Position numbers and translations under genes: made by a program
Shown here: positions 1 through 48,482 of the stretch, piece by piece
How positions within the stretch are numbered: position 1 is the first letter of the stretch
How the letters are laid out: every line of letters begins with the position of its first letter
DNA from: an uncultured Actinomycetota bacterium
Lineage (GTDB): Bacteria; Actinomycetota; Actinomycetes; BP-191
NCBI GenBank assembly: GCA_963765815.1
Contig: CAVXXT010000008.1
Location: forward strand, 370,666-434,665
Length of the DNA stretch: 64,000 nt
Direction of reading: 5' to 3'
Notes under the pieces: generated by a model
What the model was told of the DNA's origin: nothing
Databases searched by the model: none
What the model saw: the letters and a program-made list of their open reading frames with translations, nothing else

Positions 1-841
1 AGACCCAGTTGTAGCCGGGGCCGCGGAACAGCGAGCCGATGGTCGACAGGATCGCCGCCATGATCACGAACCAGGTGAACAGCATGATCGAGAACTTGCG
101 GTTGGCCGGTCGCATCGACGGGTTCTTGTCGAGGTACGGGAAGGCCATCAGCAGCACCAGGCCCACACCCGGGATGGTCACTCCCGCGATCATCGGGTGG
201 AAGTAGCGCAGCAGCTCCTGGAGTCCCAGGAAGTACCACGGCGCCTTCGACGGGTTGGGCGTCAGGTTGACGTTGGCCAGCTGCAGCAGCGGCGCGTCGA
301 CGAAGGTCGAGAACACCACGAGGAAGACGGTGCACGCCATCAGCGCGACCATCTCCTCGAGCAGCAGGTGTGGCCAGACGTTGACCTTGTCGTCCTGGGT
401 CCGCTCGACCCGCTGGATTCCCTCGGGCGGCACCATCGCCAGCAGCCGGTGCGTCATGCCCTCCGCCGTGCCGCGACCGCCGCCGGTGGCCACCGCCCCA
501 CCGCTCTTGGCCATCGCGGCGGCGACCCGCGCCTGCCGCTCGGCGGGTGAGAGCGCGGTCGGCCGGTCCATCGTCGCGGTCCCGACGGCCGCTGCCGCCG
601 GAGCGGCCGCTGCTGCTGCCGGAGCTGCGGCGGGAGCAGCCGCTGCCGCCGCGGGAGCGGCCTCTGCCGCCGGCTCCGCCGCCGCTGCCGCTGCCGCGGC
701 GCTCGGTGAGGGCACCCCTGCCGCCTTGCGCGCCTTCTTGACGGCCGCTGACTTGGCCTTGGCCCGGGCGACACGGTCGGAGTCGCCCGCGGCGATGGCC
801 GCGTCGTACGTCTCCTGGTCGGGAGTGATCTCCTCGGACAT
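1..841 (-). CDS. Cytochrome b C-terminal-domain / b6f subunit-IV-like membrane protein, 3' end truncated by the window edge. Carries an N-terminal Lys/Ala-rich helix plus an Ala/Pro linker.
   Basis: Absent from the ORF track because there is no stop in the window. Manual minus-strand translation from ATG 841..839 gives [39 protein letters not shown](Ala/Pro run)-...VNVWPHLLLEEMVALMACTVF...NPSKAPWYFLGLQELLRYFHP...FSIMLFTWFVIMAAILSTIG. GAGGA Shine-Dalgarno about 6 nt upstream. Lies directly downstream of the b6-like gene. Confidence 0.8.
   Translation of the reverse strand, partial: MSEEITPDQETYDAAIAAGDSDRVARAKAKSAAVKKARKAAGVPSPSAAAAAAAAEPAAEAAPAAAAAAPAAAPAAAAAAPAAAAVGTATMDRPTALSPAERQARVAAAMAKSGGAVATGGGRGTAEGMTHRLLAMVPPEGIQRVERTQDDKVNVWPHLLLEEMVALMACTVFLVVFSTFVDAPLLQLANVNLTPNPSKAPWYFLGLQELLRYFHPMIAGVTIPGVGLVLLMAFPYLDKNPSMRPANRKFSIMLFTWFVIMAAILSTIGSLFRGPGYNWV
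725..820 (-). other. Copy 1 of a shared 32-aa Lys/Ala-rich module ([32 protein letters not shown]) at the N-terminus of the subunit-IV-like protein
   Basis: 27 of 32 residues identical to the C-terminal module of the second NuoI (45340..45435). About 11 synonymous codon differences at identical residues. Confidence 0.85.
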
Positions 842-889: not shown

Positions 890-1702
890 CTACAGCGGGC
901 CGGAGATGCCGCCGTCCTTGCGGATGCGCCAGAAGTGCACGGCCATGAAGATGACCGCGACGAACGGCAGCGCGAGCACATGGAGCACATACCAGCGGAG
1001 CAGGGTCGGCGGCCCGATCTCGACCCCGCCGAGGAGGACGAACCGGACCTCCTTACCGAACACCGGGGTGTAGCCCATCATCTGGGTGCCGACGGCGACG
1101 GCCCAGATGGCGAGCTGGTCCCACGGCAGCAGGTAGCCGGTGAAGGACAGCAGCAGGGTGAGCAGCAGCAGGATGACGCCGACCACCCAGTTGAACTCGC
1201 GAGGCGCCTTGTAGGCACCGTGGTAGAAGACCCGCGCCATGTGCAGGAACACGGTGAAGACCATGGCGTGCGCCGACCATCGGTGCAGGTTGCGGATCAT
1301 CTGGCCGAACGTCACACCGGAGGAGAGCGCCCGGATGTCGGCGTACGCGAGCTCCTGGCCGAAGCCGGCCGACGGCCGGTAGAAGAACATCAGGTAGATG
1401 CCGGTGACCGTGAGCAGGATGAAGAGGAAGAAGCTCAGCCCGCCGAGGCAGTAGGTGTACGTCAGCTTGAGCCCGTGCCGCTTCAGCTTCACCGGGTGCA
1501 GGTGGTAGAGCACGTTGTTCATCGTGGCGAGCGCGCGGTCGCGGGAGGTGTCGCGGTAGCCCGGGCGGTAGATCGAGCCCGGCCGGAAGATGGACTTCCA
1601 GACCTGGCCCTCGCGCGGGTCCCGGGGGGCCGCGAAGTCCTTGACCTGGGCCTGGACTTCCTTGATGCGGTCCTTCGGGCTCGGCCGGTCGGCCACGTGC
1701 AT
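890..1702 (-). CDS. Cytochrome b6-type protein (split cytochrome b, N-terminal haem-binding domain)
   Basis: 270-aa ORF. Two bis-His pairs: RNLHRWSAHAMVFTVFLH (13 residues between) and LHVLALPFVAVIFMAVH (14 between, the b6-type spacing). LLPWDQLAIWAV motif. Confidence 0.9.
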   Translation of the reverse strand: MHVADRPSPKDRIKEVQAQVKDFAAPRDPREGQVWKSIFRPGSIYRPGYRDTSRDRALATMNNVLYHLHPVKLKRHGLKLTYTYCLGGLSFFLFILLTVTGIYLMFFYRPSAGFGQELAYADIRALSSGVTFGQMIRNLHRWSAHAMVFTVFLHMARVFYHGAYKAPREFNWVVGVILLLLTLLLSFTGYLLPWDQLAIWAVAVGTQMMGYTPVFGKEVRFVLLGGVEIGPPTLLRWYVLHVLALPFVAVIFMAVHFWRIRKDGGISGPL

Positions 1703-1741: not shown

Positions 1742-2095
1742 CTACTTCTTCTTCTTGGGTGCTGCCTCGCCGATCTTGGAGTAGAAGAGCGCGTACGGCG
1801 GGCAGCGGTCGACGCAGATCCCGCAGCGCGTGCACTCGTTGTCGTCGATGATGAAGATCGCGCCGGCGGTCTCGGCCAGCGTCTTCATCTCCGGGTTCTC
1901 GGCGCCGGCCACGACGTCCGGGGACATCATGTAGATGCACTCCCACGGGCAGACGTCCTCGCAGGCCCGGCAGAGGATGCACAGCTCCGGGGCGAGCGCG
2001 ATGTGCCGCTTGGGCTTGACCCGCTCCTGCAGCCAGTTGGGGTCGACGGTGCCGAGGGTGTAGTCGTCGTAGATCTCGACCCGCGCGTCCGTCAT
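1742..2095 (-). CDS. 2x[4Fe-4S] dicluster ferredoxin
   Basis: Two CxxCxxCxxxCP motifs (CILCRACEDVCP, CTRCGICVDRCP). Start taken at the internal ATG 2095..2093, because the upstream part of track ORF 1742..2365 is Arg-rich and overlaps the next gene. ATGA overlap with the upstream ORF. Confidence 0.85.
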   Translation of the reverse strand: MTDARVEIYDDYTLGTVDPNWLQERVKPKRHIALAPELCILCRACEDVCPWECIYMMSPDVVAGAENPEMKTLAETAGAIFIIDDNECTRCGICVDRCPPYALFYSKIGEAAPKKKK

Positions 2096-2403
2096 CGATA
2101 TCCGCCCGGGTCGCGCTTGCCCTCGTCTGCGTCGGCGTTGACCGGGTTCAACCGCTGGTAGAGCGAGAACAGCAGGAACGTCACGTTCACGATCGCGCCG
2201 TGGTAGCCGATGATTCCGACGTCGCGGATGCGCGGGGCGATGTCCGGGTTGTCCTCGAGGATCGACCACTCGTCGGTCCAGGCGATCAGCGCCGACGGGA
2301 TCGCGCCGTAGAAGATCAGGAACGCGATCGTCATCAGCAGTGAGGCGACGGTCACCCGTAGCCAAACGGAGTCAGTGAGACGGGGCGGGGCCTGTCCCTG
2401 CAT
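2092..2403 (-). CDS. Small (103 aa) two-TM membrane protein, first gene of the ferredoxin/b6 operon
   Basis: C-terminal part of track ORF 2092..3225: MQGQAPPRLTDSVWLRVTVASLLMTIAFLIFYG...GIIGYHGAIVNVTFLLFSLYQRL. Its stop overlaps the ferredoxin start. No recognisable family. Confidence 0.55.
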   Translation of the reverse strand: MQGQAPPRLTDSVWLRVTVASLLMTIAFLIFYGAIPSALIAWTDEWSILEDNPDIAPRIRDVGIIGYHGAIVNVTFLLFSLYQRLNPVNADADEGKRDPGGYR

Positions 2404-2586
2404 GACACCGCTCCTCGTCGATGCGGCACGGCATGCCGTGCGTGCTGTACGTCGCGGGCAGGGGCTCCTGCTCGCTGCGATACTACGGGTGTGGGGATTA
2501 CCCCGCGAATCCAACCAGCCCCGCGCGTCGCACGTCGGACGCGCCACTCGACGACGCCGATCCGTGGCGAAGAAGGACCTCTCGGG

Positions 2587-3174
2587 ATGCGGGTCGCCGA
2601 CCGTCGACTGGTCCGCCGGACGGCTGTCGCGGTGGCCTTCCTCGTCGCCACGTCGGCCGGCTGCGAGGGGTCGCGTCGCGAGGTCGACTCGCCGGTGGGC
2701 GGCAGCGGTTTCCGGGTCGGCGACGGCACCGCGACGCTCGTCGCGGCGGAGGACCGGCGCCCGGCGCCGACCTTGCGCGGGACCACCCTCGACGGCGACT
2801 CCCTCGACGTCGCGTCGCTGCGCGGCTCCGTCGTCGTCCTGAACGTGTGGGGGTCGTGGTGCGCCCCGTGCAAGAAGGAGCAGCCGGAGCTGCAGCGGGC
2901 GGCGACCGACCTGGCCGGCGAGGGCGTCAGGTTCGTCGGCATCAACGTGCGCGATCGGACCAAGGGCAATGCCCTCGCGCACAACCGCAGGTACGACGTC
3001 ACCTACCCGAGCCTTTTCGACCCGAGCGCGCGGTTGGTCGCGCGATTCGAGGACCTGCCGCCCAGCGCGATCCCGACGACGGTCGTCATCGACCGTGACG
3101 GCCGGGTGGCCGCGCGGGTGCTGGGGGCGACGTCGTACGACGAGCTGGTCGGCCTGGTCCGGCGCATCGCATGA
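2587..3174 (+). CDS. resA: Thiol-disulfide oxidoreductase ResA/TlpA-like lipoprotein (cytochrome c maturation)
   Basis: WCAPC thioredoxin motif. Signal peptide with lipobox-like SAGC. Start at ATG 2587 (MRVADRRLVRR...). Confidence 0.85.
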   Translation: MRVADRRLVRRTAVAVAFLVATSAGCEGSRREVDSPVGGSGFRVGDGTATLVAAEDRRPAPTLRGTTLDGDSLDVASLRGSVVVLNVWGSWCAPCKKEQPELQRAATDLAGEGVRFVGINVRDRTKGNALAHNRRYDVTYPSLFDPSARLVARFEDLPPSAIPTTVVIDRDGRVAARVLGATSYDELVGLVRRIA

Positions 3175-3190: not shown

Positions 3191-4009
3191 ATGGAGGTCC
3201 TGGCCGGCGTGGGCCAGACGTTCAAGGAGACGGTGCTCGACGGCCCGTTGCTGCTGGCGATGCCGGTGGCGGCGATCGCCGGGCTCGTGTCGTTCCTGTC
3301 GCCGTGCGTCCTGCCGCTGGTGCCCGGCTACCTCTCCTACATCACCGGCCTGTCCGCGGCAGACCTCGAGGCGGCCGGTCTCGACCCGTCGGGCGACGGC
3401 GACGCCGACGACCGGGTGGCGACCAAGGGGCGAGTGCTCCTCGGCAGCAGCCTCTTCGTCCTGGGGTTCTCCGTCGTGTTCGTCAGCTACGGCACGCTGT
3501 TCGGCGCAGCCGGGCGCGCGCTGCACGAGTACGAAGAGACGCTGATCCGGGTCTTCGGTGTGGTGACGATCCTCCTCGGCCTCGTCTTCGCCGGCGTGTT
3601 CACCAAGCTGTCGTTCCTCGAGCGCGACGTGCGCATCCACCGTCTGCCGTCGGCCGGCATCGCCGGCGCGCCGCTGCTCGGCGTGGTGTTCGGCCTCGGC
3701 TGGGCGCCGTGCATCGGGCCGACGCTGGGCGCGGTTCTCACTCTGGCCCTGAGCTCCGACGGCGCCGTGCGCGGTGCCCTGCTCTCATTCGTCTACTGCC
3801 TCGGGCTCGGCGTGCCCTTCGTCGTGACCGGCCTCGCCTTCCGACGGTCGATGTCGGCGTTCGCGGTCGTCAAGCGCAACTACCGCACGGTCATGCGGGT
3901 CGGCGGCGCGTTCCTCGTCGTCATCGGCGTCCTCCAGGTCACCGGGGCCTACAGCCACATCGTCACCGAGCTGCAGACCTGGTACGGCGGCTTCGCCACT
4001 GCGGTATGA
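3191..4009 (+). CDS. ccdA: Cytochrome c biogenesis thiol-reductant transporter CcdA (DsbD family)
   Basis: MEVLAGVGQTF...FLSPCVLPLVPGYLSY...GWAPCIGPTLG (two conserved Cys motifs). Polytopic. Confidence 0.9.
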   Translation: MEVLAGVGQTFKETVLDGPLLLAMPVAAIAGLVSFLSPCVLPLVPGYLSYITGLSAADLEAAGLDPSGDGDADDRVATKGRVLLGSSLFVLGFSVVFVSYGTLFGAAGRALHEYEETLIRVFGVVTILLGLVFAGVFTKLSFLERDVRIHRLPSAGIAGAPLLGVVFGLGWAPCIGPTLGAVLTLALSSDGAVRGALLSFVYCLGLGVPFVVTGLAFRRSMSAFAVVKRNYRTVMRVGGAFLVVIGVLQVTGAYSHIVTELQTWYGGFATAV

Positions 4010-5541
4010 GCGCTCGCACCTCGGCGTGGGTCAGCCTCCGGCAGAGCTGGCGCAGCCTGACCTCGATGCGCACGGCGCTCGTGCTGCTGTTCCTCCTCGC
4101 GCTGGGTGCGGTGCCAGGGTCGCTGCTGCCGCAGGAGCCGCTCGACCCGTTCGCGGTCGAGCGCTACCGCGACGCGCACCGGGTCGCCGGCCGCGTGTAC
4201 GGCGCTCTCGGGCTGTTCGACACCTTCGCCGCCCCGTGGTTCGTCGGCCTCTACGTCCTCATCTGCGTCTCGTTGGTCGGCTGCCTGACGCCGCGCATCC
4301 GGGTGCACGCGAAGGCGCTGCGCGGTCGCCCGCCGGCGCCCCCGCGGGACCTCGGCCGGCTGCCGCGCTCGGCCGAGCTGGTCACGACGGCCGCACCGGA
4401 GGATGCGCTCAAGGCGGTCGCCGCGCGACTTCGCGGCCGGCGCTGGCGCGTCGAGCGCCGCGAGCACGCCGACGGGAGCACCTCGGTCGCCGCGGAGAAG
4501 GGCTACGTCCGCGAGACCGGCAACCTGGTGTTCCACCTGTGTGTGCTCGCGATCATCGGCGGCGTCGCGGTCGGCTCGCTGCTCGGCTACGAGGGCCGCG
4601 CGATCGTCGTGGAGGGCACCGGCTTCACCAACACGGCGGTCGCCTACGACGAGCTCGTGCCCGGCCGGCTCACCGGTCCCGAGGACCTGCCCGCGTTCAC
4701 CCTCACCCTGGACGACTTCGACGCGGACTACCTCGACAACGGCCAGCCGACCGAGTTCGAGGCGTCGGTGCGATACGCCGACGGTCTGGGCGAGCCGACC
4801 CGGAGGGCCCGGCTGCGCGTCAACCACCCGCTCTCGGTCGCGGGCTCGCGCGTCTACCTGCTCGCCCACGGCTACGCCCCGCACATCGTGGTGAGAGACG
4901 TCAGAGGGGCAGTCATCTACGACGAGGTCTCGCCGTTCCTGCCGCGGGACGGCAGCTTCCTGTCGACCGGCGTCATCAAGGTGCCCGACGTCGGCGCCGG
5001 GCTGCCGCAGATCGGCGTACGCGCCGCGTTCCTCCCGACCGTGGACGTCGCCAGGGACGGGCGGCTCTACTCGCGCTTCCCGGACGCGCAGGCGCCGGCG
5101 CTGTCCTACGAGGCCTTCGCGGGCGACCTCGGGCTCGACGCGGGTGTCCCGCAGAACGTCTACGAGCTCGACACCAGCGGGCTGGTCCGCACCGGCGGCG
5201 GCTTCCTCCTGCCGGGGGAGACGAGCGGACCGCTCGCGGGCGGCGCGACCATGACGTTCGTCGGATTCCGGGAGTGGGCGAACATCCAGGTGGCTCGTGA
5301 CCCTGGACAGCGCGTCGTCCTCCTCGCGGCCGTGCTGGCGCTGACCGGGCTGGTGACCAGCCTGCGGGTTCGCCGTCGCCGGTTCTGGGTGCGCGCGCGG
5401 GCCGTCGGCGGAGGTACCGTGCTGGCGGTCGGCGGGCTGCCGCGACGTGACGCGCCGGCCTTCTCGGCGGAGTTCGACTCGCTCGTCGCCGACCTGACCG
5501 CAGCGCTCCCGGCGCCGCCGGATCCGAAGGGAACGCCGTGA
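4006..5541 (+). CDS. resB: Cytochrome c biogenesis protein ResB/Ccs1 (System II)
   Basis: ATGA overlap with the ccdA stop. N-terminus WRSLTSMRTALVLLFLLALGAVPGSLLPQ is typical of ResB. Large extracytoplasmic domain and a C-terminal TM. Confidence 0.9.
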   Translation: MSARTSAWVSLRQSWRSLTSMRTALVLLFLLALGAVPGSLLPQEPLDPFAVERYRDAHRVAGRVYGALGLFDTFAAPWFVGLYVLICVSLVGCLTPRIRVHAKALRGRPPAPPRDLGRLPRSAELVTTAAPEDALKAVAARLRGRRWRVERREHADGSTSVAAEKGYVRETGNLVFHLCVLAIIGGVAVGSLLGYEGRAIVVEGTGFTNTAVAYDELVPGRLTGPEDLPAFTLTLDDFDADYLDNGQPTEFEASVRYADGLGEPTRRARLRVNHPLSVAGSRVYLLAHGYAPHIVVRDVRGAVIYDEVSPFLPRDGSFLSTGVIKVPDVGAGLPQIGVRAAFLPTVDVARDGRLYSRFPDAQAPALSYEAFAGDLGLDAGVPQNVYELDTSGLVRTGGGFLLPGETSGPLAGGATMTFVGFREWANIQVARDPGQRVVLLAAVLALTGLVTSLRVRRRRFWVRARAVGGGTVLAVGGLPRRDAPAFSAEFDSLVADLTAALPAPPDPKGTP

Positions 5542-6512
5542 GCCAGCCCGGACTCGCCGGCCCGAGCGACACGCTGCTCGTCGCCGCCGTCGTGTCCTAC
5601 ACGGTCGCGATGGTCGGCTACGCCGCCGAGCTCGCGTTCGGCTCCCGCGACGCGGGCCTGCCCCCGATCGCGGGCGGCTCGACCGACGTGCTGCCCGAGC
5701 GCTTCGCCGGCCTGGGCGGCACGCGCACGACCGGGACCGGCTGGCCGGTGCGGCTCGGCCGGGCCGCGGTGGCCGTCACCGTCCTCGGCTGGGCTGTCCA
5801 CCTGCTGTCAGTGATCCTCCGCGGACTCGCGGTCGGGCGGGTGCCCTGGGGCAACATGTACGAGTTCTCCTCGGTGGTCTGCCTCGCGGCGGTGACCGGG
5901 TTCCTCGTCCTGATGTCACGCCAGCCGGTGCGCTACCTCGGAGCGGCCGTGATGCTCCCGGTCGTCATCTACCTCGGGCTCGGCACCACCGTCCTCTACG
6001 CCCCGGCTGCCCCTCTGGTGCCGGCGCTGAACTCCTACTGGCTGAAGATCCACGTCGCTGCGGCGGCGACCGCGAGCGGGACCTTCATGGTGGCCTTCGC
6101 GACCACCGTCCTCTACCTGGTGCAGGACGTCCGCGAACGACGTGCGAGCCCGACGCCGGAGGGCACCGCCGGCGCACCGGTCGCCCGCTTCCGCCTGCCG
6201 TCGGCGGCTTCCCTCGACGCGATTGCCTACCGCGTGACGGCGTTCGCGTTCCCCATCTGGACCTTCGCGGTCATCGCCGGCGCGATATGGGCCGAGGCGG
6301 CGTGGGGCCGCTACTGGGGCTGGGACCCGAAGGAGACCTGGGCGTTCATCACCTGGGTCCTGTACGCCGGCTACCTGCACGCCCGGCCGCTGCCGCGCTG
6401 GCAGGGCCGCCGGGCCGCCGTCGTCGGCGTGGTCGCCTTCGTCGCGCTGATGTTCTGCTACTTCGGCGTCAACCTCTGGATCTCGGGGCTGCACTCGTAC
6501 GCCGGCGTCTGA
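5538..6512 (+). CDS. ccsB: Cytochrome c-type biogenesis protein CcsB/ResC (haem-handling, WWD family)
   Basis: GTGA overlap with resB. W-rich motif WGRYWGWDPKETWAFITW. Polytopic. Confidence 0.92.
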   Translation: MSQPGLAGPSDTLLVAAVVSYTVAMVGYAAELAFGSRDAGLPPIAGGSTDVLPERFAGLGGTRTTGTGWPVRLGRAAVAVTVLGWAVHLLSVILRGLAVGRVPWGNMYEFSSVVCLAAVTGFLVLMSRQPVRYLGAAVMLPVVIYLGLGTTVLYAPAAPLVPALNSYWLKIHVAAAATASGTFMVAFATTVLYLVQDVRERRASPTPEGTAGAPVARFRLPSAASLDAIAYRVTAFAFPIWTFAVIAGAIWAEAAWGRYWGWDPKETWAFITWVLYAGYLHARPLPRWQGRRAAVVGVVAFVALMFCYFGVNLWISGLHSYAGV

Positions 6513-6606
6513 CGCGCGCGACCGCCTGGCCGAGGGCGCGCCGATTTCGCGCGGTCCCGGGTCGGATCTATACGATCGGCGCCGTCGGATCGGGTCGAGT
6601 GCGGAG

Positions 6607-8067
6607 GTGGGAGTGGCGCTGGCCACGTCGTCGTCCGCCACGGCTGCTCATGAGGCGGACAGCTCCGCCGACGCGCGCAGCTGGTCCACCCCGTCGGGTG
6701 CGGCGCTCACCTGGGTCACCGTGGGAGCGACGTTCCTGCTCCTCGGCGCACTGCTGCTCGTCCTGACCGCCATCCAGCAGGTGTCGCCCGGCTTCGCGAC
6801 GCTCGGCTCCGCCACGTCGTTCGGACGGCTGCGACCCGTCGCGACGACTCTGGTCACCTACGGCGGGCTCGGGATGATCGGCACCGGGGTCGCGCTCGAC
6901 CTCGCCCGCCGGCTCGGCCGGACGCCGCCGCGGCTCGACCTCGTGGCACGGGCCGGCGGCGCGCTGACGACGCTGTCCGTCGCCGGCGGGTCGATCGCGA
7001 TCCTGCTCGGCCACACGACCGGGCGACCGGGCCTCGAGCTGCCGCGGCCGTTCTCCGTGCCGCTCGCCGTCGGCCTGCTGCTGGCCGCCGCTGCCTACTT
7101 CCGCACGCTCGCGACCCGCGACGCCGACGAGCTGCATCCCGCGCTCTGGCACGTCAGCTCCGCCCTCGTCGCGGGGCCGCTGCTCCTCCTGATCGGGACC
7201 GTCCCGCGGGTCGCCGGCGTCAACGACGAGACCGTCCGGGTGTTCGCCACCAACGGCCTGCTGCTGCTCTGGCTGGTCTCGCTGGGCATCGGCATCGCGA
7301 CGTACGTCGTGCCGCAGGCCTGCCGGTCCGCGCTCTACAGCCGTCGGCTCGCCGCCGTCGGGTTCTGGGGCTGGATCGCTCTCGCGCCATTCGCCGGACC
7401 GGCCCGGCTGGTGTCCGGCCCGGCGCAGGAGTGGCTCGAGACGATCGGCATCACCGCGACGATCGCCCTCGCCGTCCCGGCGCTGGCCGTCTGCGTGAAC
7501 CTGGTCAAGACCTACACCCGCCGCAGCAGCCTCGCCCACCCGGCCGAGCTGCGCTTCGGCCTGCTGTGCGCGAGCCTGCTCGCCGGGGCCACGTCGCTCG
7601 GCGCCCTGACCGCGGGCCGCAACGCCGGCGACGTGCTGCACCTGACCGTCGCGGCCGACGGCGCTGCCGAGCTGATTGTCCTCGGCGTCGCGGGCGCGGG
7701 CATCGTGGCCGGCCTCTTCCACGTCCTCCCCGCTCTGGCCGGACGGCGGCAGGCCAACCCGGCGATCGCCGGGCGCGCGGCCTGGTGGCTCGGCGCGGGG
7801 ATCCTGACCGTCGCGCTCTCGCTGCTGGCCGCGGGCCTGATCGAGGGCGCGCTGTGGACCTACAGCGTGCGCGAGGGCGGCGACGCCTTCCTCGGGTCCG
7901 GGTGGCGAACGGTCGCCGACAGCATCCGGCCGCTCTTGTGGGCGCGCGTCGTAGGTGAGGTGCTGGTCGCGATCGCCGCGACCATCGTCTTCCAGCAGGT
8001 CCTGTCGACGTCGGCGTTCGGTGAGCCGATCGACGCGGACGACACCGGGACTTCGGGGAAGGCGTGA
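6607..8067 (+). CDS. CcoN-like (cbb3 oxidase subunit I-like) polytopic membrane protein that appears to lack the canonical His metal ligands
   Basis: 486 aa with about 12 or more hydrophobic helices. Collinear CcoN-type motifs: SFGRLRP, Y-VVP-x6-LYS-x2-LA-x3-FW, AGP. Only 7 His, with no HH and no HxH. Its stop overlaps the start of the CcoO-like gene. Confidence 0.7.
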   Translation: MGVALATSSSATAAHEADSSADARSWSTPSGAALTWVTVGATFLLLGALLLVLTAIQQVSPGFATLGSATSFGRLRPVATTLVTYGGLGMIGTGVALDLARRLGRTPPRLDLVARAGGALTTLSVAGGSIAILLGHTTGRPGLELPRPFSVPLAVGLLLAAAAYFRTLATRDADELHPALWHVSSALVAGPLLLLIGTVPRVAGVNDETVRVFATNGLLLLWLVSLGIGIATYVVPQACRSALYSRRLAAVGFWGWIALAPFAGPARLVSGPAQEWLETIGITATIALAVPALAVCVNLVKTYTRRSSLAHPAELRFGLLCASLLAGATSLGALTAGRNAGDVLHLTVAADGAAELIVLGVAGAGIVAGLFHVLPALAGRRQANPAIAGRAAWWLGAGILTVALSLLAAGLIEGALWTYSVREGGDAFLGSGWRTVADSIRPLLWARVVGEVLVAIAATIVFQQVLSTSAFGEPIDADDTGTSGKA

Positions 8068-8603
8068 TGAGAAGGCTCACCCTCATGCCGGTGCTGCTCG
8101 GCTCGGCCGTGCTGCTCGGCGCCGGCTTCGCGACGACCGTGGCGCTGCCGGCCGCGGACGAGGTGACGACGACGAAGACCTCGTCGACCCGGGCCTACAC
8201 CAACGGTGAGGCGTGGGGGCGCGACGTCTACGTCAACCAGGGCTGCGTCTACTGCCACAGCCAGCAGGTGCGTGACACCTACACCGACGCCGGTCTCGCC
8301 GATCGGCCGACCCGTCCGGGCGACACGCTGACCGACCGCCCCGGGAGCATGGGAGAGGTCCGCTACGGACCCGACCTGCGCTGCGTGGGTGACCGGGTCC
8401 CCGGCGCCGGCGACGGCACCGACAGGGAGGAGCTGGTCGAGGCCATGGTCGCCTACCTCCGACACCCCGACGAGGCGCACGCGGACAGCGGCATGCCGTC
8501 GTACCAGCACCTGTCGAAGAAGGACCTCGGCCGACTCGCGCAGTACCTCGTCGGGCTCCGCTGCGGTGACGAGGCCGCGGCCGATGCGCAGGTCGCGGAG
8601 TGA
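8064..8603 (+). CDS. CcoO/FixO-like membrane-anchored monohaem cytochrome c
   Basis: N-terminal TM. GRDVYVNQGCVYCHSQQVR (CxxCH at 8244..8258), YGPDL, SGMPSY. All are collinear with cbb3 subunit II hallmarks. Confidence 0.85.
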   Translation: MMRRLTLMPVLLGSAVLLGAGFATTVALPAADEVTTTKTSSTRAYTNGEAWGRDVYVNQGCVYCHSQQVRDTYTDAGLADRPTRPGDTLTDRPGSMGEVRYGPDLRCVGDRVPGAGDGTDREELVEAMVAYLRHPDEAHADSGMPSYQHLSKKDLGRLAQYLVGLRCGDEAAADAQVAE

Positions 8604-8827
8604 GCGGCCGACCGGTCTTCATCGACCCGGTGTCCGACTTCGGCGACGACGTCGGGGACGGCCGCACGCCCGCGTGGTTCGCGCTGGTCGCGGTGCTGCT
8701 GCTCGCCGCCGCGGTGTTCTACGCCTTCTCCTACCGCGAGGGTCCCTCGCTCGAGTCGCCGCACACCTTCCGCGAAGGCGCCGGCGTCGAGGTGCCCGCA
8801 GAGACGTCGACCGGGTCCGGGCACTGA
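8600..8827 (+). CDS. Small single-TM protein (CcoQ-like by position only)
   Basis: 75 aa. GTGA overlap with the CcoO-like stop. One TM: WFALVAVLLLAAAVFYAF. Confidence 0.5.
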   Translation: MSGRPVFIDPVSDFGDDVGDGRTPAWFALVAVLLLAAAVFYAFSYREGPSLESPHTFREGAGVEVPAETSTGSGH

Positions 8828-8867
8828 CCGAGCGCGGCGCCGCTCGCCGCCCGGGATACTGACCGCC

Positions 8868-10318
8868 ATGGCGTACGCCGACCTGCGCGACTTCCTGCGC
8901 CGTCTCGAGCGCGAGGGCGAGCTGCGCCACGTGTCCGCTCCGGTGGACCCGCACCTCGAGGTCACCGAGATCGTGACGCGGGTGGTTCGCGACGGCGGGC
9001 CCGCGCTGGTGTTCGACCAGCCGCAGGGCGCGAGCATGCCGCTGGCGATCAACCTGTTCGGCACCGAGCGGCGGATGGCCATGGCGCTGGGCGTCGACTC
9101 CCTCGACGAGATCGGCGACCGGATCGGCGACGCTGCTCAAGCCGGAGATGCCGCACGGCTTCGGCGGCGTCCGCGAGGCGATCGGCAAGCTCGCGTCGCT
9201 GCGCGGCGTGCCGCCCAAGATGGTGTCGCACCGCGCCGTGCCAGGAGGTCGTGAAGACCGGCGCCGACGTCGACCTGTTCGAGTTCCCCGCGCTGCACGC
9301 CTGGCCCGAGGACGGCGGCGCGTTCCTGAACCTCGGGCTGACGCACACCAAGCACCCGGAGACCGGCGTCCGCAACCTCGGGATGTACCGGCTGCAGCGG
9401 CACGACCGCAACACCGTCGGCATGCACTGGCAGATCCACAAGGACTCGACGGCGCACCATGCGGTGGCCGAGCGCCGGGGGGAGCGGCTTCCGGTCGCGA
9501 TCGCGTTCGGCTGCGACCCAGTCGTCACCTACGCCGCGAGCGCGCCGCTGCCGGGGATCGACGAGTACCTCTTCGCCGGGTTCCTCCGCGGCAAGCGGGT
9601 CGAGCTGGTCGACTGCAAGACCGTCCCGCTGCAGGTGCCGGCCAACGCGCAGATCGTCCTCGAGGGCTGGCTCGAGCCGGGGGTACGCCGTCCCGAAGGG
9701 CCGTTCGGCGACCACACCGGCTTCTACACGCCGGTCGAGCCGTTCCCGGCGCTCACCGTCGACTGCGTGACGATGCAGCGCGACCCGATCTTCCAGACCA
9801 TCGTCGTCGGCCGGCCGCCGCAGGAGGACGGGCCGATCGGCAAGGCGACGGAGCGGATCTTCCTGCCGCTCATCACGATGACGCTGCCGGAGATCGTCGA
9901 CTACGACCTCCCCGTCGAGGGCGTGTTCCACAACTGCGTGATCGTCTCGATCGACAAGCGCTACCCCAAGCAGGCGCACAAGGTGATGAACGCGATCTGG
10001 GGCACCGGACTCCTGTCGCTGTCCAAGCTGATCGTCGTCGTCGACGCCGACTGCGACGTGCACGACTACCGCGAGGTCGCGTGGCGCGCGTTCGGCAACG
10101 TCGACTACGCGCACGACCTGCTGCTCACCAGCGGGCCGGTGGACCACCTCGACCACGCGGCGTACCAGCAGTTCTGGGGCGGCAAGGCCGGGGTCGACGC
10201 GACCCGCAAGCTGCCGACCGAGGGCTACGACCGCGCGGGCGGCTGGCCGACGATGCTCGTGCAGGACCCCGACGTCGTGGCGCGGGTGGACGCGCGGTGG
10301 CGCGAGCTCGGGCTGTGA
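8868..10318 (+). pseudogene. ubiD: UbiD-family decarboxylase (menaquinone biosynthesis decarboxylase) interrupted by two apparent frameshifts
   Basis: The family-typical sequence is spread over three frames. Frame of 8868: MAYADLRDFLRRLEREGELRHVSAPVDPHLEVTEI...DEIGDRIGD. Frame of 9148: LLKPEMPHGFGGVREAIGKLASLRGVPPKMVSH. Frame of 9251: APCQEVVKTGADVDLFEFPALHAWPEDGGAFLNLGL... to stop 10318. Switches lie near 9129-9135 and 9229-9235. Confidence 0.85.
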
Positions 10319-13078: not shown

Positions 13079-14804
13079 ATGCGTTCGATTCCTCGACTTG
13101 TCGCCGCAGCAGCAGTGCTCGGCGTCGTGATTCCCACCGCGACGGCAGCCAACGCCGCCACCGCCCCGGTCAAGGCCGCCGGCGTCGCCCAGTCCACCGC
13201 CAAGCTGATCCAGGTCGACGCGTTCGGCAAGAGCGTCACGCTGGGCAGCCTCACCAGCACCGCCGGAACGAAGGACGCGCTCGACGCGATCGTCGAGTTC
13301 ACGCCCGTCGTCGTCGACGGCGTGAAGAGCGGCACGCAGTCCGTCACCCCGTCGTCGTCGCCGAAGTCGGTGCCCGCGCAGAGCACCTCCGCCGCCGGCC
13401 TCCCGTCGACGCTCCTGTCGGCGTCGTCGCCGGCAGCGCAGCTGGTCGCCTCCGTCACCAACGGCGCGCCGACGGCTGGTCTCACCGGGACGCTCGGCTC
13501 GGTGCGCCTGCTCGGGACCGACCTCCTCGGCACCAGCGGCGTCCAGGTCGGCTCCGCGGTCACCGGCGTCGGATCCGACGCGTCGAAGGCGGTGTCCGCG
13601 AAGAACATCGGGATGCCCAGCCTCGCCGACATCATCAGCGGTCTCGGGCTCGACCTCAGCGCGCTTCCGCTGCCGGTCGTGCAGGACCTGCTCCGCTCCC
13701 TCCCCGGCACGCTCGCTCCGGCGATCGAGACCGCGATGACGGGCGCGCAGTCCGCGCAGTCGGCCGTCGACTCCGCCCAGGCGCAGGTCACCGCGGCCCA
13801 GTCCCAGGTCGCTCCGGCGCAAGCGGCCGTCGCCTCGGCCACCACGGCCATGAGCCAGGCCGACGCCGCGGTCGCCGCGGCGCAGGCCCAGCTGAACGCG
13901 GCGAACGCGCTGCCGATCCCGATCCCGGCCGACATCGCGTCCGCTACTCGCCGCGCTGTCGGCGGCCCAGTCCCAGGCCAACGCGGCAGCAGCCACCCTG
14001 GCCAACGCCAACGCGGCACTCGCCGCGGCCAACGCCGCCGTGGACACCGCGCAGGCCGCGCTGAACGCGGCGCTCGCCGCGCTCAACTCGGCGCTCGACA
14101 CGGTGCTCGCGCTCGCCGCCAGCATCCTGGATGTGCCGCTCGTGTCGATCGTGTCGATCAACGTCTCGTCGCTCGCCCAGGTGGGCCCGAAGGCGACCAA
14201 CCGCACGGCCGACGTCACCGGCACCATCTCCGGCGTCTCGGTTCTCGGCGCCGACGTGCTGGCGATGGCCGGCCTCGGCTCGACGGTCGACGTCATCGGC
14301 TCGGCCAGCGCAGCGGTGAACCAGATCAACTCGCAGGTTCGTGGCGTCCTCAGCCCGGTCTTCTCGGCGCTGAACTCCGCGGTGCCCGGACTGACCGTCC
14401 CGACGCCGTCGGTGGAGTTCCTCACCAAGCAGACCGGCGTGGGCACCGACGGAGCCTTCGGCACCGCGTTCGCCGCGGTCAACGCGCTCACCGTCAAGAT
14501 CGGCGCGCTGACGATCCCGACCCTGGTGGCCCTGCCCACCCTGCCCGCGCTGCCCGGCATCACCCAGTCCGCCGCCTCGATCAGCACCGCCCCGATCGCG
14601 ATGGTGGTCGGCCAGCTTGGCGAGTCCGCTCGGTTCCGTCCGGCCTCCACGACCGGCGCGCCGATCACCCCCGGCTCGCCCGGCACCAACGGCGGCCCGA
14701 CCCTGCCCAGCACGGGCGCCCCGGTCGGCCTCGCCGTCGCCGCCCTCGTCGTGACCGGACTGGCGGTCGCCGCCCGTCGGCGCACCGCAGAGTCGATCGG
14801 CTAG
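13079..14804 (+). pseudogene. LPXTG (LPSTG) sortase-anchored coiled-coil surface protein with one apparent frameshift
   Basis: Signal peptide (MRSIPRLVAAAAVLGVVIPTATAANA) and an Ala/Gln coiled coil in the frame of 13079. The coiled coil continues in another frame from about 13944 (LLAALSAAQSQANAAAATLANANAAL...) and ends with LPSTG + TM + RRR, stop at 14804. A strong terminator follows at 14824. Confidence 0.8.
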
Positions 14805-14823
14805 CCAGAGAGCGCACCCCGGA

Positions 14824-14853
14824 GCCGGCGTACCCACTCGGGTACGCCGGCTT
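14824..14853 (+). terminator. Rho-independent terminator-like hairpin after the LPXTG gene
   Basis: Perfect 12-bp stem GCCGGCGTACCC / GGGTACGCCGGC with an ACTC loop, followed by TT. Confidence 0.6.
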
Positions 14854-14887
14854 CGGCGCGTCCGGGGTGCCGACATAAGGTCGACGC

Positions 14888-16548: not shown

Positions 16549-18807
16549 CTACGCCGAGGTCGCCCGGAACCTGCGCAGACGCAGGCTGTTCGTGACGACG
16601 AAGACGCTCGACAGCGCCATCGCCGCGCCGGCGAGCAGCGGGTTCAGCAGGCCGAGTGCGGCCAGCGGCAGCGCAGCGACGTTGTAGGCGAAGGCCCAGA
16701 ACAGGTTGCCCTTGATGGTCTGCAGCGTCCTGCGGGACAGCCGGATCGCATCGGGCACGGCGCGCAGGTCGGACCGGACGAGGGTGATGTCGCTCGCCTC
16801 GATCGCGACGTCGGACCCGGCTCCCATCGCGATGCCGAGGTCGGACTGGGCCAGCGCCGCGGCGTCGTTGACGCCGTCGCCGACCATCGCGACCACCCGG
16901 CCGTCAGCCTGCAGTCGTCGGACGTGGTCGACCTTGTCCTCCGGCAGCACATCCGCGACTACCTCCGGGATGCCGACCGCATCGGCGACCGCACGGGCGG
17001 CCGCGGCGTTGTCTCCGGTCAGCAGGACGGGGACGAGCCCGATCCGGCGCAGGTCGGCGACCGCGTCGGCGCTGGTCGGCCTGATGGCGTCGCCGACGAC
17101 GAGCAACGCGCGGACCGCTCCGTCCCAGGCGGCCACCACCGCAGTCCGGCCCGCGGACTCGGCGGCATCCTTCGCGGCAGCGATGTCGGCCGGGATCAGC
17201 AGCCCCCAGTCGGCGACGAGCGAGGATCGCCCGACGACAGCGGCATGTCCGTCGACGATGCCTTGAACGCCCAGCCCGGCGTGGCTGACGAAGTCGGTGA
17301 CGTCGGGCAGCTCACCGAGCGCGTCGTGGGCGGCACGCGTGATCGCGCTGCCGATCGGGTGAGCCGAGCCGCTCTCGAGCGCACCGACGACGCGTAGCGC
17401 TTCGGCCTCCGTCGTACCGGGGGAGACGACGACGGCATGCAGCGTCATCACACCGGTGGTCACCGTGCCGGTCTTGTCGAGGACGACGGTGTCGACCCGG
17501 CGCGTGCTCTCGAGGATCTCCGGTCCCTTGATGAGGATGCCGAGCCGTGCGCCGCGGCCGGTTCCGACGAGCAGTGCGGTCGGCGTCGCCAGTCCCAGAG
17601 CGCACGGGCAGGCGACGATCAGCACCGCCACCGCCGCGGTGAAGGCTGCCTCCGCGCCGTGGCCGGTGACCAGCCACGCCACCAGGGTTGCCGCGGCGAG
17701 CGCGATGACGACGGGCACGAAGACGGCGCTGACCCGGTCGGCCAGTCGCTGGACCTCGGCCTTGCCGCTCTGCGCCGCCTCGACGAGCCGGCCGATCTGG
17801 GCCAGCCGGGTGTCTGCGCCGATGCGGGTCGCGCGGACGACCAGCCGGCCGCTGCTGCTGGTCGTAGCACCGGTCACCTCGTCGCCGACGACGACGTCGA
17901 CGGGGATGCTCTCCCCGGTGAGCAGGCTGGTGTCGACCGCTCCGCCGCCTTCGACCACGATGCCGTCGGTCGCGATCCGCTCACCCGGCCGGACGACGAA
18001 CTCGTCGTCGACGGCCAGCTGCTCGATCGGGATGCGCACCTCGGCCCGGCCGCGACGCACCGCGACGTCCTTGGCGCCGAGCTCGAGCAGCGCGCGCACC
18101 GCCGCGCCGGACCGGCGCTTCGCGCGCGCCTCGAAGTAGCGGCCGCCGAGCAGGAACACGGTGACGACGGCGGCGACCTCGAGGTAGATCTCGTCGTGGC
18201 CCGAGCCGCGCGACGCCGTCAGCCGCAGGCTCATGCGCATCCCCGTCATGCCGGCGTCGCCCACGAACAGCGCGTAGAGCGACCAGAGGTAGGCCGAGAG
18301 CGTGCCGACCGACACCAGCGTGTCCATCGTGGTCGCCCCGTGCCTCGCATTGGTCCACGCGGCTCGGTGGAACGGCAGAGCCCCCCACACCACCACTGGT
18401 GACGCGAGAGTGAGGGCGAGCCACTGCCAGCGGTCGAACTGCAGGGCGGGCACCATCGACATCGCGAGGACCGGGACGGAGAGCAGCGTGGAGACGACGA
18501 GGCGCTCGCGCAGCGCACCGGCCGCGTCCGGGCCGATGGCCTCTCCCGTCGCCACGGCGGGAGTGCCGGCCGTGGAGGGCACGACCGCAGTCGCGCCGTA
18601 CCCGGCTCGCGCGACGGCCGCGACGAGGTCGTCGGCAGACATCGTCGCGGGGTGGGCGACGCGCGCCTTCTCGGTCGCGTAGTTGACCGTCGCCTCGACC
18701 CCGTCCAGGCGGTTGAGCACCTTCTCGATCCGTGCGGCGCACGAGGCGCAGGTCATCCCGGTCACCGCGAGCACGGTGTCGGCAGTCAGCTCGCTGGTTG
18801 AGGTCAT
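16549..18807 (-). CDS. copA: Copper-translocating P1B-type ATPase (CopA/CtpA-like)
   Basis: Start at ATG 18807 (the upstream part of the track ORF is Arg-rich). GMTCASCAARIE metal-binding domain, CPC (VACPCALGLATP), DKTGT, SAHP, GDGVNDAAAL. Confidence 0.92.
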   Translation of the reverse strand: MTSTSELTADTVLAVTGMTCASCAARIEKVLNRLDGVEATVNYATEKARVAHPATMSADDLVAAVARAGYGATAVVPSTAGTPAVATGEAIGPDAAGALRERLVVSTLLSVPVLAMSMVPALQFDRWQWLALTLASPVVVWGALPFHRAAWTNARHGATTMDTLVSVGTLSAYLWSLYALFVGDAGMTGMRMSLRLTASRGSGHDEIYLEVAAVVTVFLLGGRYFEARAKRRSGAAVRALLELGAKDVAVRRGRAEVRIPIEQLAVDDEFVVRPGERIATDGIVVEGGGAVDTSLLTGESIPVDVVVGDEVTGATTSSSGRLVVRATRIGADTRLAQIGRLVEAAQSGKAEVQRLADRVSAVFVPVVIALAAATLVAWLVTGHGAEAAFTAAVAVLIVACPCALGLATPTALLVGTGRGARLGILIKGPEILESTRRVDTVVLDKTGTVTTGVMTLHAVVVSPGTTEAEALRVVGALESGSAHPIGSAITRAAHDALGELPDVTDFVSHAGLGVQGIVDGHAAVVGRSSLVADWGLLIPADIAAAKDAAESAGRTAVVAAWDGAVRALLVVGDAIRPTSADAVADLRRIGLVPVLLTGDNAAAARAVADAVGIPEVVADVLPEDKVDHVRRLQADGRVVAMVGDGVNDAAALAQSDLGIAMGAGSDVAIEASDITLVRSDLRAVPDAIRLSRRTLQTIKGNLFWAFAYNVAALPLAALGLLNPLLAGAAMALSSVFVVTNSLRLRRFRATSA

Positions 18808-18809
18808 GG

Positions 18810-19091
18810 TCAGCTCCGGACCAGCCGCGCGATCGCGTCGGCGGCCTCCTTGAGCTTGAGCTCCTGCTCCGTCCCGCCGGCCCGCGCGGCGTCGACGAGG
18901 CAGTGGCTCATGTGGTCGTCGAGCAGGCGCAGCGCGACTGACTGCAGCGCCCTCGTCGCCGCGGACACCTGGGTGAGGATGTCGATGCAGTAGGTGTCGC
19001 TCTCGACCATGCGTGCGATGCCGCGCACCTGACCTTCGACGCGGCGCAGCCGCGCGAGGTGCTCGTCCTTCGTGTCGGTGTAGCCAGCCAT
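18810..19091 (-). CDS. csoR: CsoR-family copper-sensing repressor
   Basis: Start at ATG 19091. DEHLARLRRVEGQVRGIARMVESDTYCIDILTQVSAATRALQSVALRLLDDHMSHC (the Cys...His-x-x-x-Cys ligand pattern). Confidence 0.9.
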   Translation of the reverse strand: MAGYTDTKDEHLARLRRVEGQVRGIARMVESDTYCIDILTQVSAATRALQSVALRLLDDHMSHCLVDAARAGGTEQELKLKEAADAIARLVRS

Positions 19092-19118
19092 GGCTGCTCC
19101 TCTCGCCGTCCACTGCTG

Positions 19119-19137
19119 TATACCCCAGGGGGGTACC
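19119..19137. promoter_or_regulatory. Putative CsoR operator (GC-tract pseudo-palindrome)
   Basis: GTATACCCCAGGGGGGTAC: TACCCC-AGG-GGGGTA inverted repeat 28-46 nt upstream of the csoR start. Resembles described CsoR boxes (TACCC...GGGTA type). Confidence 0.55.
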
Positions 19138-19189
19138 CGCCACAACAGTGTCACGGGGCCGGGCATTCCCGCGGGTTAGCCTCTTGCCT

Positions 19190-27765: not shown

Positions 27766-27769
<4 letters not shown>
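27170..27769 (+). CDS. nuoC: NADH-quinone oxidoreductase subunit C
   Basis: ATGA overlap. [25 protein letters not shown]...DYPLGG. Confidence 0.92.
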
Positions 27770-29069
<1,300 letters not shown>

Positions 29070-29070
<1 letters not shown>

Positions 29071-36109: not shown

Positions 36110-36114
36110 CCCCC

Positions 36115-38043: not shown

Positions 38044-38044
38044 C

Positions 38045-48416: not shown

Positions 48417-48482
48417 CCGCCATGAGTGCCATCAGCACATGCCCCCGTATGGCCGCGTCAAGACTCGAGAGGGACCGCCGAG

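Follow-up and report, generated by a model that had tools for sequence, protein, structure and literature searches.

The closest described counterparts of the locus reported here are the cbb3-type (C-family) oxygen reductases, encoded by operons such as ccoNOQP (structures 3MK7/5DJQ, 8SMR, 6XKW), and their relatives among the haem-copper oxidases. In canonical cbb3 systems, loss of CcoN usually removes both c-type cytochromes as well, and assembly proceeds via a CcoNO subcomplex (PMC8267372). Supercomplexes of bc1 and cbb3 exist in Proteobacteria (PMC10556555; PDB 8smr, 6xkw), and in those of P. aeruginosa (8SMR, PMC10556555) and R. capsulatus (6XKW, PMC7876108) a cbb3 module is joined, both physically and functionally, to a Rieske/cytochrome b complex. 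Other described families derive from oxygen reductases but have altered active sites. For example, the available passages of the Murali et al. 2024 haem-copper oxidase survey (PMC11214002) give a family table that spans the A, B, and C families and the nitric oxide reductases (NORs) to NOD and 'N2O red', and present cNOR and qNOR, together with eNOR, sNOR, gNOR, nNOR, NOD, and 'N2O red', as such derivatives, the C-family branch among them having a cytochrome c subunit. Here we describe three adjacent genes within a 64,000-nucleotide stretch of DNA from an uncultured Actinomycetota bacterium (assembly GCA_963765815.1, contig CAVXXT010000008.1, positions 370,666 to 434,665; hereafter the window). 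The trio resembles a cbb3 operon in gene order and in the fold of its first product, but that product has lost every ligand of the catalytic centre. It is close to certain that the trio is not an oxidase, yet is maintained.

We refer to the ccoN-like gene as N, to the ccoO-like gene as O, and to the third gene as the peptide gene; L-numbers denote related loci that were compared with the window, and P-numbers denote collected homologue proteins. The trio consists of the following genes.

6607 to 8067, forward strand: N, a CcoN-like 12-helix membrane protein of 486 aa (Pfam COX1, Foldseek)
8064 to 8603, forward strand: O, a CcoO-like membrane-anchored monohaem cytochrome c of 179 aa (Pfam FixO)
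8600 to 8827, forward strand: a single-helix peptide of 75 aa with a weak FixP_N-type signal

An earlier note on this DNA, made from the letters alone, had read these as three open reading frames (ORFs) joined by overlapping stop and start codons. Indeed, all three lie on the same strand and both junctions are GTGA overlaps, so that the trio is like ccoNOQP in its order of N, O, and third gene and in its overlapping codons. It is unlike canonical cbb3 operons in that it has no dihaem CcoP, no ccoGHIS genes were seen adjoining it, it is found in metagenome-assembled genomes (MAGs) of Actinomycetota, and its products score far under the equivalog cut-offs (N 95.8 bits against 583.15 for the CcoN model TIGR00780; O 55.9 against 200.65 for TIGR00781, as a divergent member). 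The G+C content at third codon positions (GC3) is 0.93-0.95 for N, O, and the peptide gene, as for the upstream gene resC, and a promoter and terminator scan over 6300-9000 found nothing.

A CcoN-type fold without cofactor ligands

The collinearity of N with cbb3 subunit I, proposed in the earlier note, is borne out over the full length of the protein. N matches Pfam PF00115 (COX1) with an E value of 3.1e-28, residues 33-452 aligning to profile positions 3-435 of 436, and P. stutzeri CcoN (3mk7_A) with an E value of 1.2e-17 in phmmer. An AlphaFold2 (AF2) model of N, with a predicted local distance difference test score of 86 and a predicted template-modelling score (pTM) of 0.87, has twelve long helices. 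When this model was submitted to Foldseek the best matches were all cbb3 CcoN chains, with template-modelling (TM) scores of 0.85-0.89 to 3MK7 at 21% identity, and cbb3 chains (E 1e-18) ranked ahead of NOR chains (E 1e-10) and of A/B-family oxidases. Like canonical CcoN, N has the 12-helix subunit I fold and the motifs GRLRP, Y-x2-P...YS...FW, and AGP. The full-length profile match and the Foldseek matches together mean that homology to CcoN is not a chance resemblance; the earlier note had named the lack of any significant relationship to CcoN as the outcome that would undo its reading, and the relationship is highly significant by profile and by structure.

The ligand columns were placed by three agreeing alignments: a HMMER pairwise alignment to 3mk7_A, a MAFFT alignment with the canonical CcoN P0050, and a profile alignment. 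For the haem ligands we take the numbering to be His60, His345, and His347, after Buschmann et al. 2010. The numbering of the CuB ligands, His207, His257, and His258, is that given in PMC3578206.

6841 to 6843, forward strand: A79 at haem b ligand His60 (P. stutzeri numbering); Ala or Gly throughout the family
7252 to 7254, forward strand: N216 at CuB ligand His207; the family has N, S, or A
7384 to 7386, forward strand: A260 at the cross-linked Tyr251; invariant Ala in the close family
7402 to 7407, forward strand: A266-R267 at CuB ligands His257/His258; R267 in 98% of the close family
7663 to 7671, forward strand: A353-A354-E355 at the HxH motif (haem b3 His345 at A353, 7663 to 7665; haem b His347 at E355, 7669 to 7671)

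His residues at these columns would have spoken against the loss of ligands put forward in the earlier note, and none of the six is present in N or in any one of about 50 orthologues. Two of the substitutions stand exactly where that note had placed them, namely the Ala for the haem b His at 6841-6843 (A79, aligned to His60) and the change of GPHH to GPAR at 7402-7407 (A266 and R267, aligned to His257 and His258). For the other two the loss itself holds and the placement shifts: the Thr at 7249-7251, taken for the remaining CuB position, is T215, one residue off the correct column N216, and the LHLT stretch at 7639-7647, taken for GHxH, lies eight residues off the true columns A353 and E355. 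Within that stretch H345 aligns to a conserved non-ligand residue, His337. The count of seven His in N (residues 15, 136, 177, 182, 311, 345, and 372), with no HH and no HxH, was also correct.

The changes extend beyond the ligands. Canonical CcoN has 51 positions that are at least 85% conserved, of which the close family retains 29, mostly Gly, Pro, Trp, and Arg; the canonical invariants replaced in N include the six His, Tyr251, E122 (now P141), Y158 (H177), T215 (V224), Y223 (T232), and Y317 (L325). We take E122 to be the Ca2+/propionate ligand, and T215, Y223, and Y317 to line the proton pathway, again after Buschmann et al. 2010; a literature search for residue-level work on the cbb3 proton pathway and Ca site gave nothing. 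The close family has invariant residues of its own, H177, R240, R267, E278, R306, E355, and R447, of which E355 is near-invariant (one Asp). Thus conservation extends to the fold of N but not to the ligand positions or to several other residues invariant in canonical CcoN, and in the replacement of the six His, the cross-link Tyr, and these further residues the trio departs from canonical cbb3 oxidases. Since all ligands of haem b, haem b3, and CuB are lost along with the Tyr, N should be incapable of O2 or NO reduction through the known mechanism. The lost ligands and the lost equivalents of E122, T215, Y223, and Y317 together argue against O2 reduction coupled to proton pumping by N.

The partner cytochrome, the third gene, and selection on the trio

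In contrast to N, O keeps its haem site. It matches Pfam PF02433 (FixO) with an E value of 1.3e-18 and 67.7 bits, above the gathering score of 29.6, and CcoO chains in the PDB with E values of 6e-12 to 1.6e-10. Like canonical CcoO it has an N-terminal anchor, CxxCH, GPDL, and MPSY; its N-terminus is hydrophobic and anchor-like, reading MPVLLGSAVLLGAGFATTVAL.

8244 to 8258, forward strand: CVYCH, the haem c attachment motif of O (residue 61)
8364 to 8378, forward strand: YGPDL of O
8493 to 8495, forward strand: Met144 of MPSY, the presumed sixth haem c ligand of O, aligned to R. capsulatus CcoO (6xkw_o)

All of the hallmarks that the earlier note had listed for O (CxxCH, YGPDL, and MPSY with its Met) are therefore present. 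The MPSY Met is conserved in the O alignment, and every examined O gene or O domain that accompanies a ligand-less N retains CxxCH. This pairing sets the trio apart from the NORs as the available passages of the Murali et al. survey describe them (PMC11214002). There, the sites of cNOR and qNOR still contain a high-spin haem together with a metal bound by His, and the only substitution reported, in gNOR, is a single Asp for His, whereas N keeps nothing. In qNOR a NorC-like domain lacks the haem c motif yet the complex persists; the trio is the mirror image of that arrangement, with the catalytic subunit emptied and the cytochrome c haem site kept.

The third gene had been likened to CcoQ, with CcoP said to be missing, and this part of the earlier note is not upheld. 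The peptide matches FixQ (PF05545) with an E value of only 0.043 and 14.2 bits, below the gathering score of 29, and among nine orthologues FixQ is matched by one and FixP_N (PF14715) by five, the latter a weak signal with a best E value of 0.0029. CcoQ identity was accordingly not supported. The peptide profile aligns weakly, at 9-19 bits, to the P-x-W...Y...GP anchor helix of CcoP-like cytochromes of 270-290 aa that follow N-O in Acidimicrobiia-type loci (L010, L012, L014-L016), and also to haem-less third genes in L017, L019, and L100. Although faint, this signal is consistent and agrees with the position of the gene. The peptide has no Cys and no CxxCH, and hence is without the two haem domains of CcoP (TIGR00782). 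Judging from these alignments, the peptide is probably a CcoP reduced to its membrane anchor, and the matches to anchor helices make N-O-P, with only the anchor of P left, our reading of the trio.

The trio belongs to a clade in which all of its genes have been kept. A word-indexed search found 49 N orthologues at 51-77% identity, the next match being at 24%; those that are named come from Mycobacteriales or Frankiaceae MAGs and include relatives at 74% identity. Gene order is the same in nine genome loci (L001-L009), where N and O are intact in nine of nine and the peptide gene in eight, L009 ending before it, and no frameshift or stop was found in N across about 50 protein clusters down to 51% identity. 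Ratios of non-synonymous to synonymous substitution (dN/dS) were computed by the Nei-Gojobori method for the seven closest pairs; because dS is compressed by the extreme GC3, they are meaningful only in comparison with neighbouring genes. For N they were 0.14-0.32 in six of seven pairs and 0.43 in the pair L004-L007, and for O 0.16-0.39, as compared to 0.19-0.41 for resB and resC, 0.18-0.45 for ubiA, and 0.03-0.08 for cytochrome b6. For the peptide gene they reached 0.7-1.1 in some pairs. N, O, and the peptide gene are under purifying selection in this clade. The test of dN/dS that the earlier note had called for thus places N with resB, resC, and ubiA, and no disrupted orthologue was found.

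These data bear on the possibility that the trio is a neutral relic, a decaying cbb3 operon without present function that is carried along in a conserved neighbourhood. The high ratios of the peptide gene would suit such a relic, as would the much faster change of N (51-77% identity) than of cytochrome b6 in the same genomes (89-98%). However, N, O, and the peptide gene show no frameshift or stop at the nine loci, nor do the approximately 50 protein clusters, the ratios of N and O equal those of resB, resC, and ubiA rather than 1, the family has its own invariant residues, and CxxCH is found in every O partner. Low dN/dS and intact ORFs mean that, over the time span of the clade, the operon is not dying out, and we consider a relic quite unlikely. 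The core of the earlier note, that a catalytic centre has been lost from a protein kept with an intact CcoO-type cytochrome c and that a non-oxidase role is implied, is supported by the alignments, the CcoN homology, and dN/dS alike.

N is a pseudoenzyme in that its cofactor residues are gone while it is under purifying selection and kept across species. Core1 and Core2 of the mitochondrial bc1 complex, two structural subunits that descend from the same family as the matrix processing peptidase but are inactive, offer a parallel. In these and in other pseudoenzymes (for a review, see PMC10211241), catalytic residues have likewise been lost from proteins that are kept under selection. Unlike Core1 and Core2, N derives from a different protein family, its structural role is only proposed, and it is optional across lineages.

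A wider group of ligand-less CcoN-like proteins

The earlier note had also suggested a survey of ligand-less CcoN and CcoO pairs, and this revealed a large group rather than a single oddity. When 1.84 billion representatives were searched exhaustively with a profile, 1258 matches (E <= 1e-3) were obtained, among which the close family accounts for only three clusters; the rest start at 224 bits. When the 274 alignable proteins were scored for ligand His, 196 had none, 24 had one, 16 had two, one had three, three had four, two had five, and 32 had all six, a bimodal distribution in a sample that is skewed to ligand-less proteins because the query profile is itself ligand-less. Despite this skew, the ligand-less type comprises hundreds of 50%-identity clusters. 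Every source name met for these proteins in the searches is that of a cbb3-type cytochrome c oxidase subunit.

Natural fusions of N and O, 625-710 aa in length, are frequent among the ligand-less members, and all keep exactly one CxxCH; such fusions occur in canonical and ligand-less forms alike. Two of them carry organism names, one from Acidimicrobiia and one from an 'Actinomycetota bacterium' MAG. An AF2 model of one natural fusion has a pTM of 0.88 over the whole chain, which fits a predicted cbb3-like packing of O on N. In tblastn comparisons, the window N region in L020 and L021 is only 28-29% identical to the fusions of L010 and L012. A ligand-less state common to proteins so distant must be old, and this age also speaks against a neutral relic.

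Some relatives retain partial ligand sets (P0180, P0199, P0258, P0261, P0298, P0249, and P0128). For example, P0199 (pattern HEVAPHH) keeps the haem ligands and has no CuB His, P0180 (HHAQYHH) keeps the haem ligands and one CuB His, and P0258 and P0298 are without one His and without the Tyr. These proteins may be intermediates or differently specialised forms. A crude neighbour-joining tree of 252 sequences, from which the ligand columns were removed, did not cleanly separate canonical from ligand-less proteins, with canonical ones in at least two groups, and given this mixing the tree does not decide between single and multiple loss of the ligands.

Variation across the group also bears on whether N might be catalytic, or might bind haem, a metal, or quinol, in a new way through non-His residues or the family-specific His (e.g. 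E355, R267, H177, H372). Invariant polar residues occupy two former ligand positions in the close family (R267, E355), which besides has the family-specific His 177 and 372; some relatives keep partial sets (P0180, P0199); and the persistence of N without an O gene at one locus (L100, below) suggests a role of its own. Nevertheless, the wider group conserves none of these residues, having Q, W, T, L, or A at the E355 column and R267 in only 31%. H177 falls on a conserved Tyr that immediately follows the basic R-K-x-K segment in canonical CcoN, which would put it near the cytoplasmic surface, and two His are too few for two haems and a metal. Tyr251 and the presumed proton-pathway positions are lost as well, and the confidence of the AF2 model of N is low at residues 266-270, its weakest point falling exactly on the former CuB site. 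A new cofactor or catalytic chemistry is therefore very unlikely.

Two further loci broaden the picture. At L018 an OEP/TolC-like gene gives a hint of spread outside Actinomycetota; a homologue search that took in distant members without the fusion yielded hardly any organism names. At L101 (8087-11945) the partner of another ligand-less N (pattern TRSGSVL, 493 aa) is a class I cytochrome c of 152 aa that does not resemble FixO; the pair lies divergent from a cytochrome b of 383 aa, and GT87 and zf-HC2 anti-sigma genes make the context actinobacterium-like.

We found no account of ligand-less CcoN in the literature searched, which left out most subscription-journal papers, so that an earlier mention is possible, and the family is absent from the available passages of the Murali et al. 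survey (PMC11214002). Going by sequence, ligand-less N would represent a cofactor-less, cytochrome-c-retaining derivative of C-family oxidases, and the group appears to have gone unrecognised so far.

Genomic neighbourhood and candidate roles

The trio is flanked upstream by cytochrome c maturation genes of System II, assigned from ORFs and from synteny in L001-L007, and beyond these by a divergent operon for a Rieske/cytochrome b complex that runs into the window edge (2 to 2514).

2 to 841, reverse strand: subunit IV-like gene, cut by the window edge
890 to 1702, reverse strand: cytochrome b6
1745 to 2095, reverse strand: 2x[4Fe-4S] ferredoxin
about 2098 to 2514, reverse strand: small membrane protein
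2491 to 3174, forward strand: resA
about 3191 to 4009, forward strand: ccdA
about 4009 to 5541, forward strand: resB
5538 to 6512, forward strand: resC

ResB and Cytochrom_C_asm Pfam matches were obtained in related loci. The full operon, seen in L003 (1122-5790), continues with Rieske, monohaem cytochrome c, and a further membrane protein; the Rieske and cytochrome c genes fall outside the window. Its cytochrome b is split into b6 and a long subunit IV and is accompanied by the extra 2x[4Fe-4S] ferredoxin, making this an unusual Rieske/cytochrome b complex; in Actinobacteria a split cytochrome b has been reported only in Rubrobacteridae and one Acidimicrobidae strain (Kao & Hunte 2014, PMC4122944). 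Downstream of the trio lie futalosine-pathway genes resembling UbiD, UbiA, and UbiX and, farther on, genes for a Cu P-type ATPase, a cupredoxin protein, and nuo subunits.

A ferredoxin-cytochrome b6 operon is located within 10 kb of ligand-less N in the window, L001-L007, L010, L012, L014-L016, L020, L021, L099, and L100. In five of these loci (L010, L012, L014, L015, and L016) an N-O fusion is followed by a CcoP-like cytochrome c, a flavin adenine dinucleotide (FAD)/geranylgeranyl-reductase-like gene, and nuo, and adjoins a divergent operon of small protein, ferredoxin, cytochrome b6, subunit IV, Rieske, and cytochrome c. That operon is directly divergent from N-O, with no maturation genes between, in L010, L014, and L015; in L012 and L016 res genes intervene. 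The window and the fusion loci share 67-70% identity in cytochrome b6. Islands of the same type at L017 (1-8247) and L100 (3704-9927) carry System I ccm genes (ccmE/F/H, ccmABC) in place of the System II res genes, the L100 island comprising the Rieske/b6-ferredoxin operon, ligand-less N, the FAD gene, and nuo, and that of L017 ligand-less N and the FAD gene. The maturation system has been swapped in place at these two loci.

The nearness of the trio to System II is real, at 94 nt from the end of resC to the start of N where the earlier note had given about 95, but operon coupling to the maturation genes does not hold. In L004, which represents one sub-clade, a lipoprotein-like gene and a gene for a secreted protein with a HEMGHxxxLxH zinc-protease motif lie on the opposite strand (7642-9904, reverse) between resC and N, and other lineages have no res genes there (L010, L014, L015); coupling of the trio to System II was rejected on these grounds. 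A DinB-like gene was also observed in L004, between the peptide and UbiD genes. The res-free loci, the System I loci, and the L004 insertion together indicate that the trio is its own unit in a c-type cytochrome island, not tied to one maturation system.

This argument extends to the suggestion that N-O is an accessory of cytochrome c biogenesis, handling haem or apocytochromes with the adjacent maturation system and taking no part in electron transfer. In favour of such an accessory, N follows resC closely in the window and by 30 nt in L019, and the neighbours of N-O are System II genes in the window clade, L012, L016, and L019 but genes of the unrelated System I in L017 and L100, a notable association with two different machineries. 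Yet there are no maturation genes within 10 kb of N-O in L010, L014, and L015, and resC and N are separated by the two opposite-strand genes of L004 and by gaps of 0.8-1.7 kb in L005-L007. Many genomes have resABC in the same place without N-O, so that maturation is independent of it. Moreover, N is without haem ligands and has no obvious haem binding, and O is itself a substrate of maturation, which is a simpler reason for the clustering. We therefore regard a biogenesis role as unlikely.

Our preferred reading, which we hold tentatively, is that the trio is the remnant of a cbb3-type (C-family) oxygen reductase operon, ccoN-ccoO-ccoP, kept as a pseudo-oxidase scaffold that serves as an optional haem-c accessory module. 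N would be a cofactor-free membrane scaffold that holds and stabilises the CcoO-type cytochrome c on the outer side of the membrane; the dependence of CcoO on CcoN in canonical systems would be a simple reason to keep N once O was useful. The module would be an optional accessory of the neighbouring ferredoxin-Rieske/cytochrome b6c complex, acting either as a docking subunit left from a former bc-cbb3 supercomplex or as a one-haem relay from the cytochrome c of the b6c complex to the real terminal acceptor encoded elsewhere. Docking to this complex, or receipt of electrons from it, is suggested by the conserved neighbourhood and by the known bc1-cbb3 supercomplexes, in which a cbb3 module is coupled to a complex of the kind whose operon the trio genes adjoin. 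The likeness has limits: the cbb3 of those supercomplexes is active, whereas the centre of the trio is gone and its physical association is suggested by gene neighbourhood, and the Rieske/cytochrome b complex here is of the split b6 type with an extra 2x[4Fe-4S] ferredoxin. The position beside maturation genes would most simply reflect co-location of c-type cytochrome genes with their maturation machinery.

Several observations weigh against this reading. A metagenome scan with a cytochrome b6 profile yielded at least 585 relatives, and in a reverse test on the 27 loci whose flank on the upstream side of b6 reached at least 6 kb, an N-like gene was found there in only two; L099, with a shorter flank, also has one. 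The resABC genes lie beside the operon with nothing N-like in L024, L030, L034, L044, L050, L053, and L062, and in loci of the L073 type, where N-O is absent, a CcoP-like cytochrome c and the FAD gene remain, lying directly divergent from the ferredoxin-b6 operon. In L100 (10001-11982) a ligand-less N of 458 aa is followed by a 201-aa haem-less protein with a CcoP-anchor-like helix, and there is no O gene within 10 kb, so that N can be kept even where the cytochrome for which it would be the scaffold is missing. L100 and the weak reverse association count against a role purely as a scaffold for O. The tie of N-O to the Rieske/b6c complex is drawn from gene neighbourhood, and some of the synteny could stem from a gene order inherited from actinobacterial ancestors (hemL - res - men/mqn - nuo); the real terminal oxidase of the host genome is an assumption, and would lie outside the region in view.

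The arrangements met include an N-O fusion with haem-bearing P, N and O with a P anchor (the window), N with a P anchor, and P alone. This patchiness, with N-O missing from most loci that have the orthologous Rieske/b6 operon and losses that differ between lineages (in the window clade, L017, and L019 the P haem domain; in L100 O; in L073-type loci N-O), would also suit a neutral relic. The weak reverse association makes N-O an optional accessory and not a core subunit of the Rieske/b6c complex. An obligatory partnership with the ferredoxin-Rieske/b6c operon was considered, every N locus with enough flank having that operon, and was rejected on the result of the reverse test (2/27).

A rather doubtful but possible alternative is that ligand-less CcoN proteins are fossils of an ancient bc-cbb3 supercomplex in Actinomycetota, and that N is now an integral cofactor-free subunit of the ferredoxin-containing Rieske/b6c complex with a function independent of the CcoO haem. 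Such a function might be proton conduction, quinone or lipid binding, or supercomplex docking, and the occurrence of N without O in L100 hints at it.

Other features of the window were noted as follows.

8868 to 10318, forward strand: UbiD-like (menaquinone/futalosine) gene, right after the trio, split over three frames with changes near 9126-9132 and 9215-9225
13079 to 14804, forward strand: secreted Ala/Ser/Thr-rich surface protein with an apparent frameshift
16549 to 19254, reverse strand: heavy-metal P-type ATPase with an HMA domain, CopA/CcoI-like
20159 to 21565, forward strand: 468-aa protein with a plastocyanin/azurin-type cupredoxin domain
26932 to 41130, forward strand: nuo (complex I) operon
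46143 to 50033, forward strand: second set, three antiporter-like (Proton_antipo_M) genes about 5 kb farther on

The UbiD-like gene has orthologues in L001 and L003 that are single 480-aa ORFs, and its split form is due either to assembly indel errors or to its being a pseudogene. In the surface protein the signal-peptide part is in the frame of ORF 13079-14878, and the C-terminal part, with an LPSTG motif, a hydrophobic helix, and an RRR tail that form a sortase signal, is in that of ORF 14040-14804. That both genes are split suggests assembly indel errors. The ATPase and the cupredoxin protein would put copper handling, and possibly a blue-copper electron carrier, near an oxidase remnant without copper ligands. 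The ORF of the nuo 49-kDa subunit is 712 aa long with the domain only in its C-terminal 290 residues, and may be a fusion or an over-long ORF call.

The annotation of the ligand-less group as cbb3, and hence as a high-affinity terminal oxidase, is very probably wrong, and this alters predictions of microaerobic respiration for soil, freshwater, and marine Actinomycetota. MAG descriptions in PMC8357290, whose genes may or may not be of the ligand-less kind, exemplify the practice of reading cbb3 calls as a high-affinity terminal oxidase. The trio would also be a clean case in which an enzyme central to bioenergetics has become a cofactor-free scaffold with its cytochrome c partner intact. It flags an uncharacterised, very conserved, and very common ferredoxin-Rieske/b6c complex in Actinomycetota, for which the trio is a candidate accessory module. 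Finally, it provides evidence that the ancestors of these actinobacterial lineages had a cbb3-type oxidase, of whose dismantling several stages are preserved.

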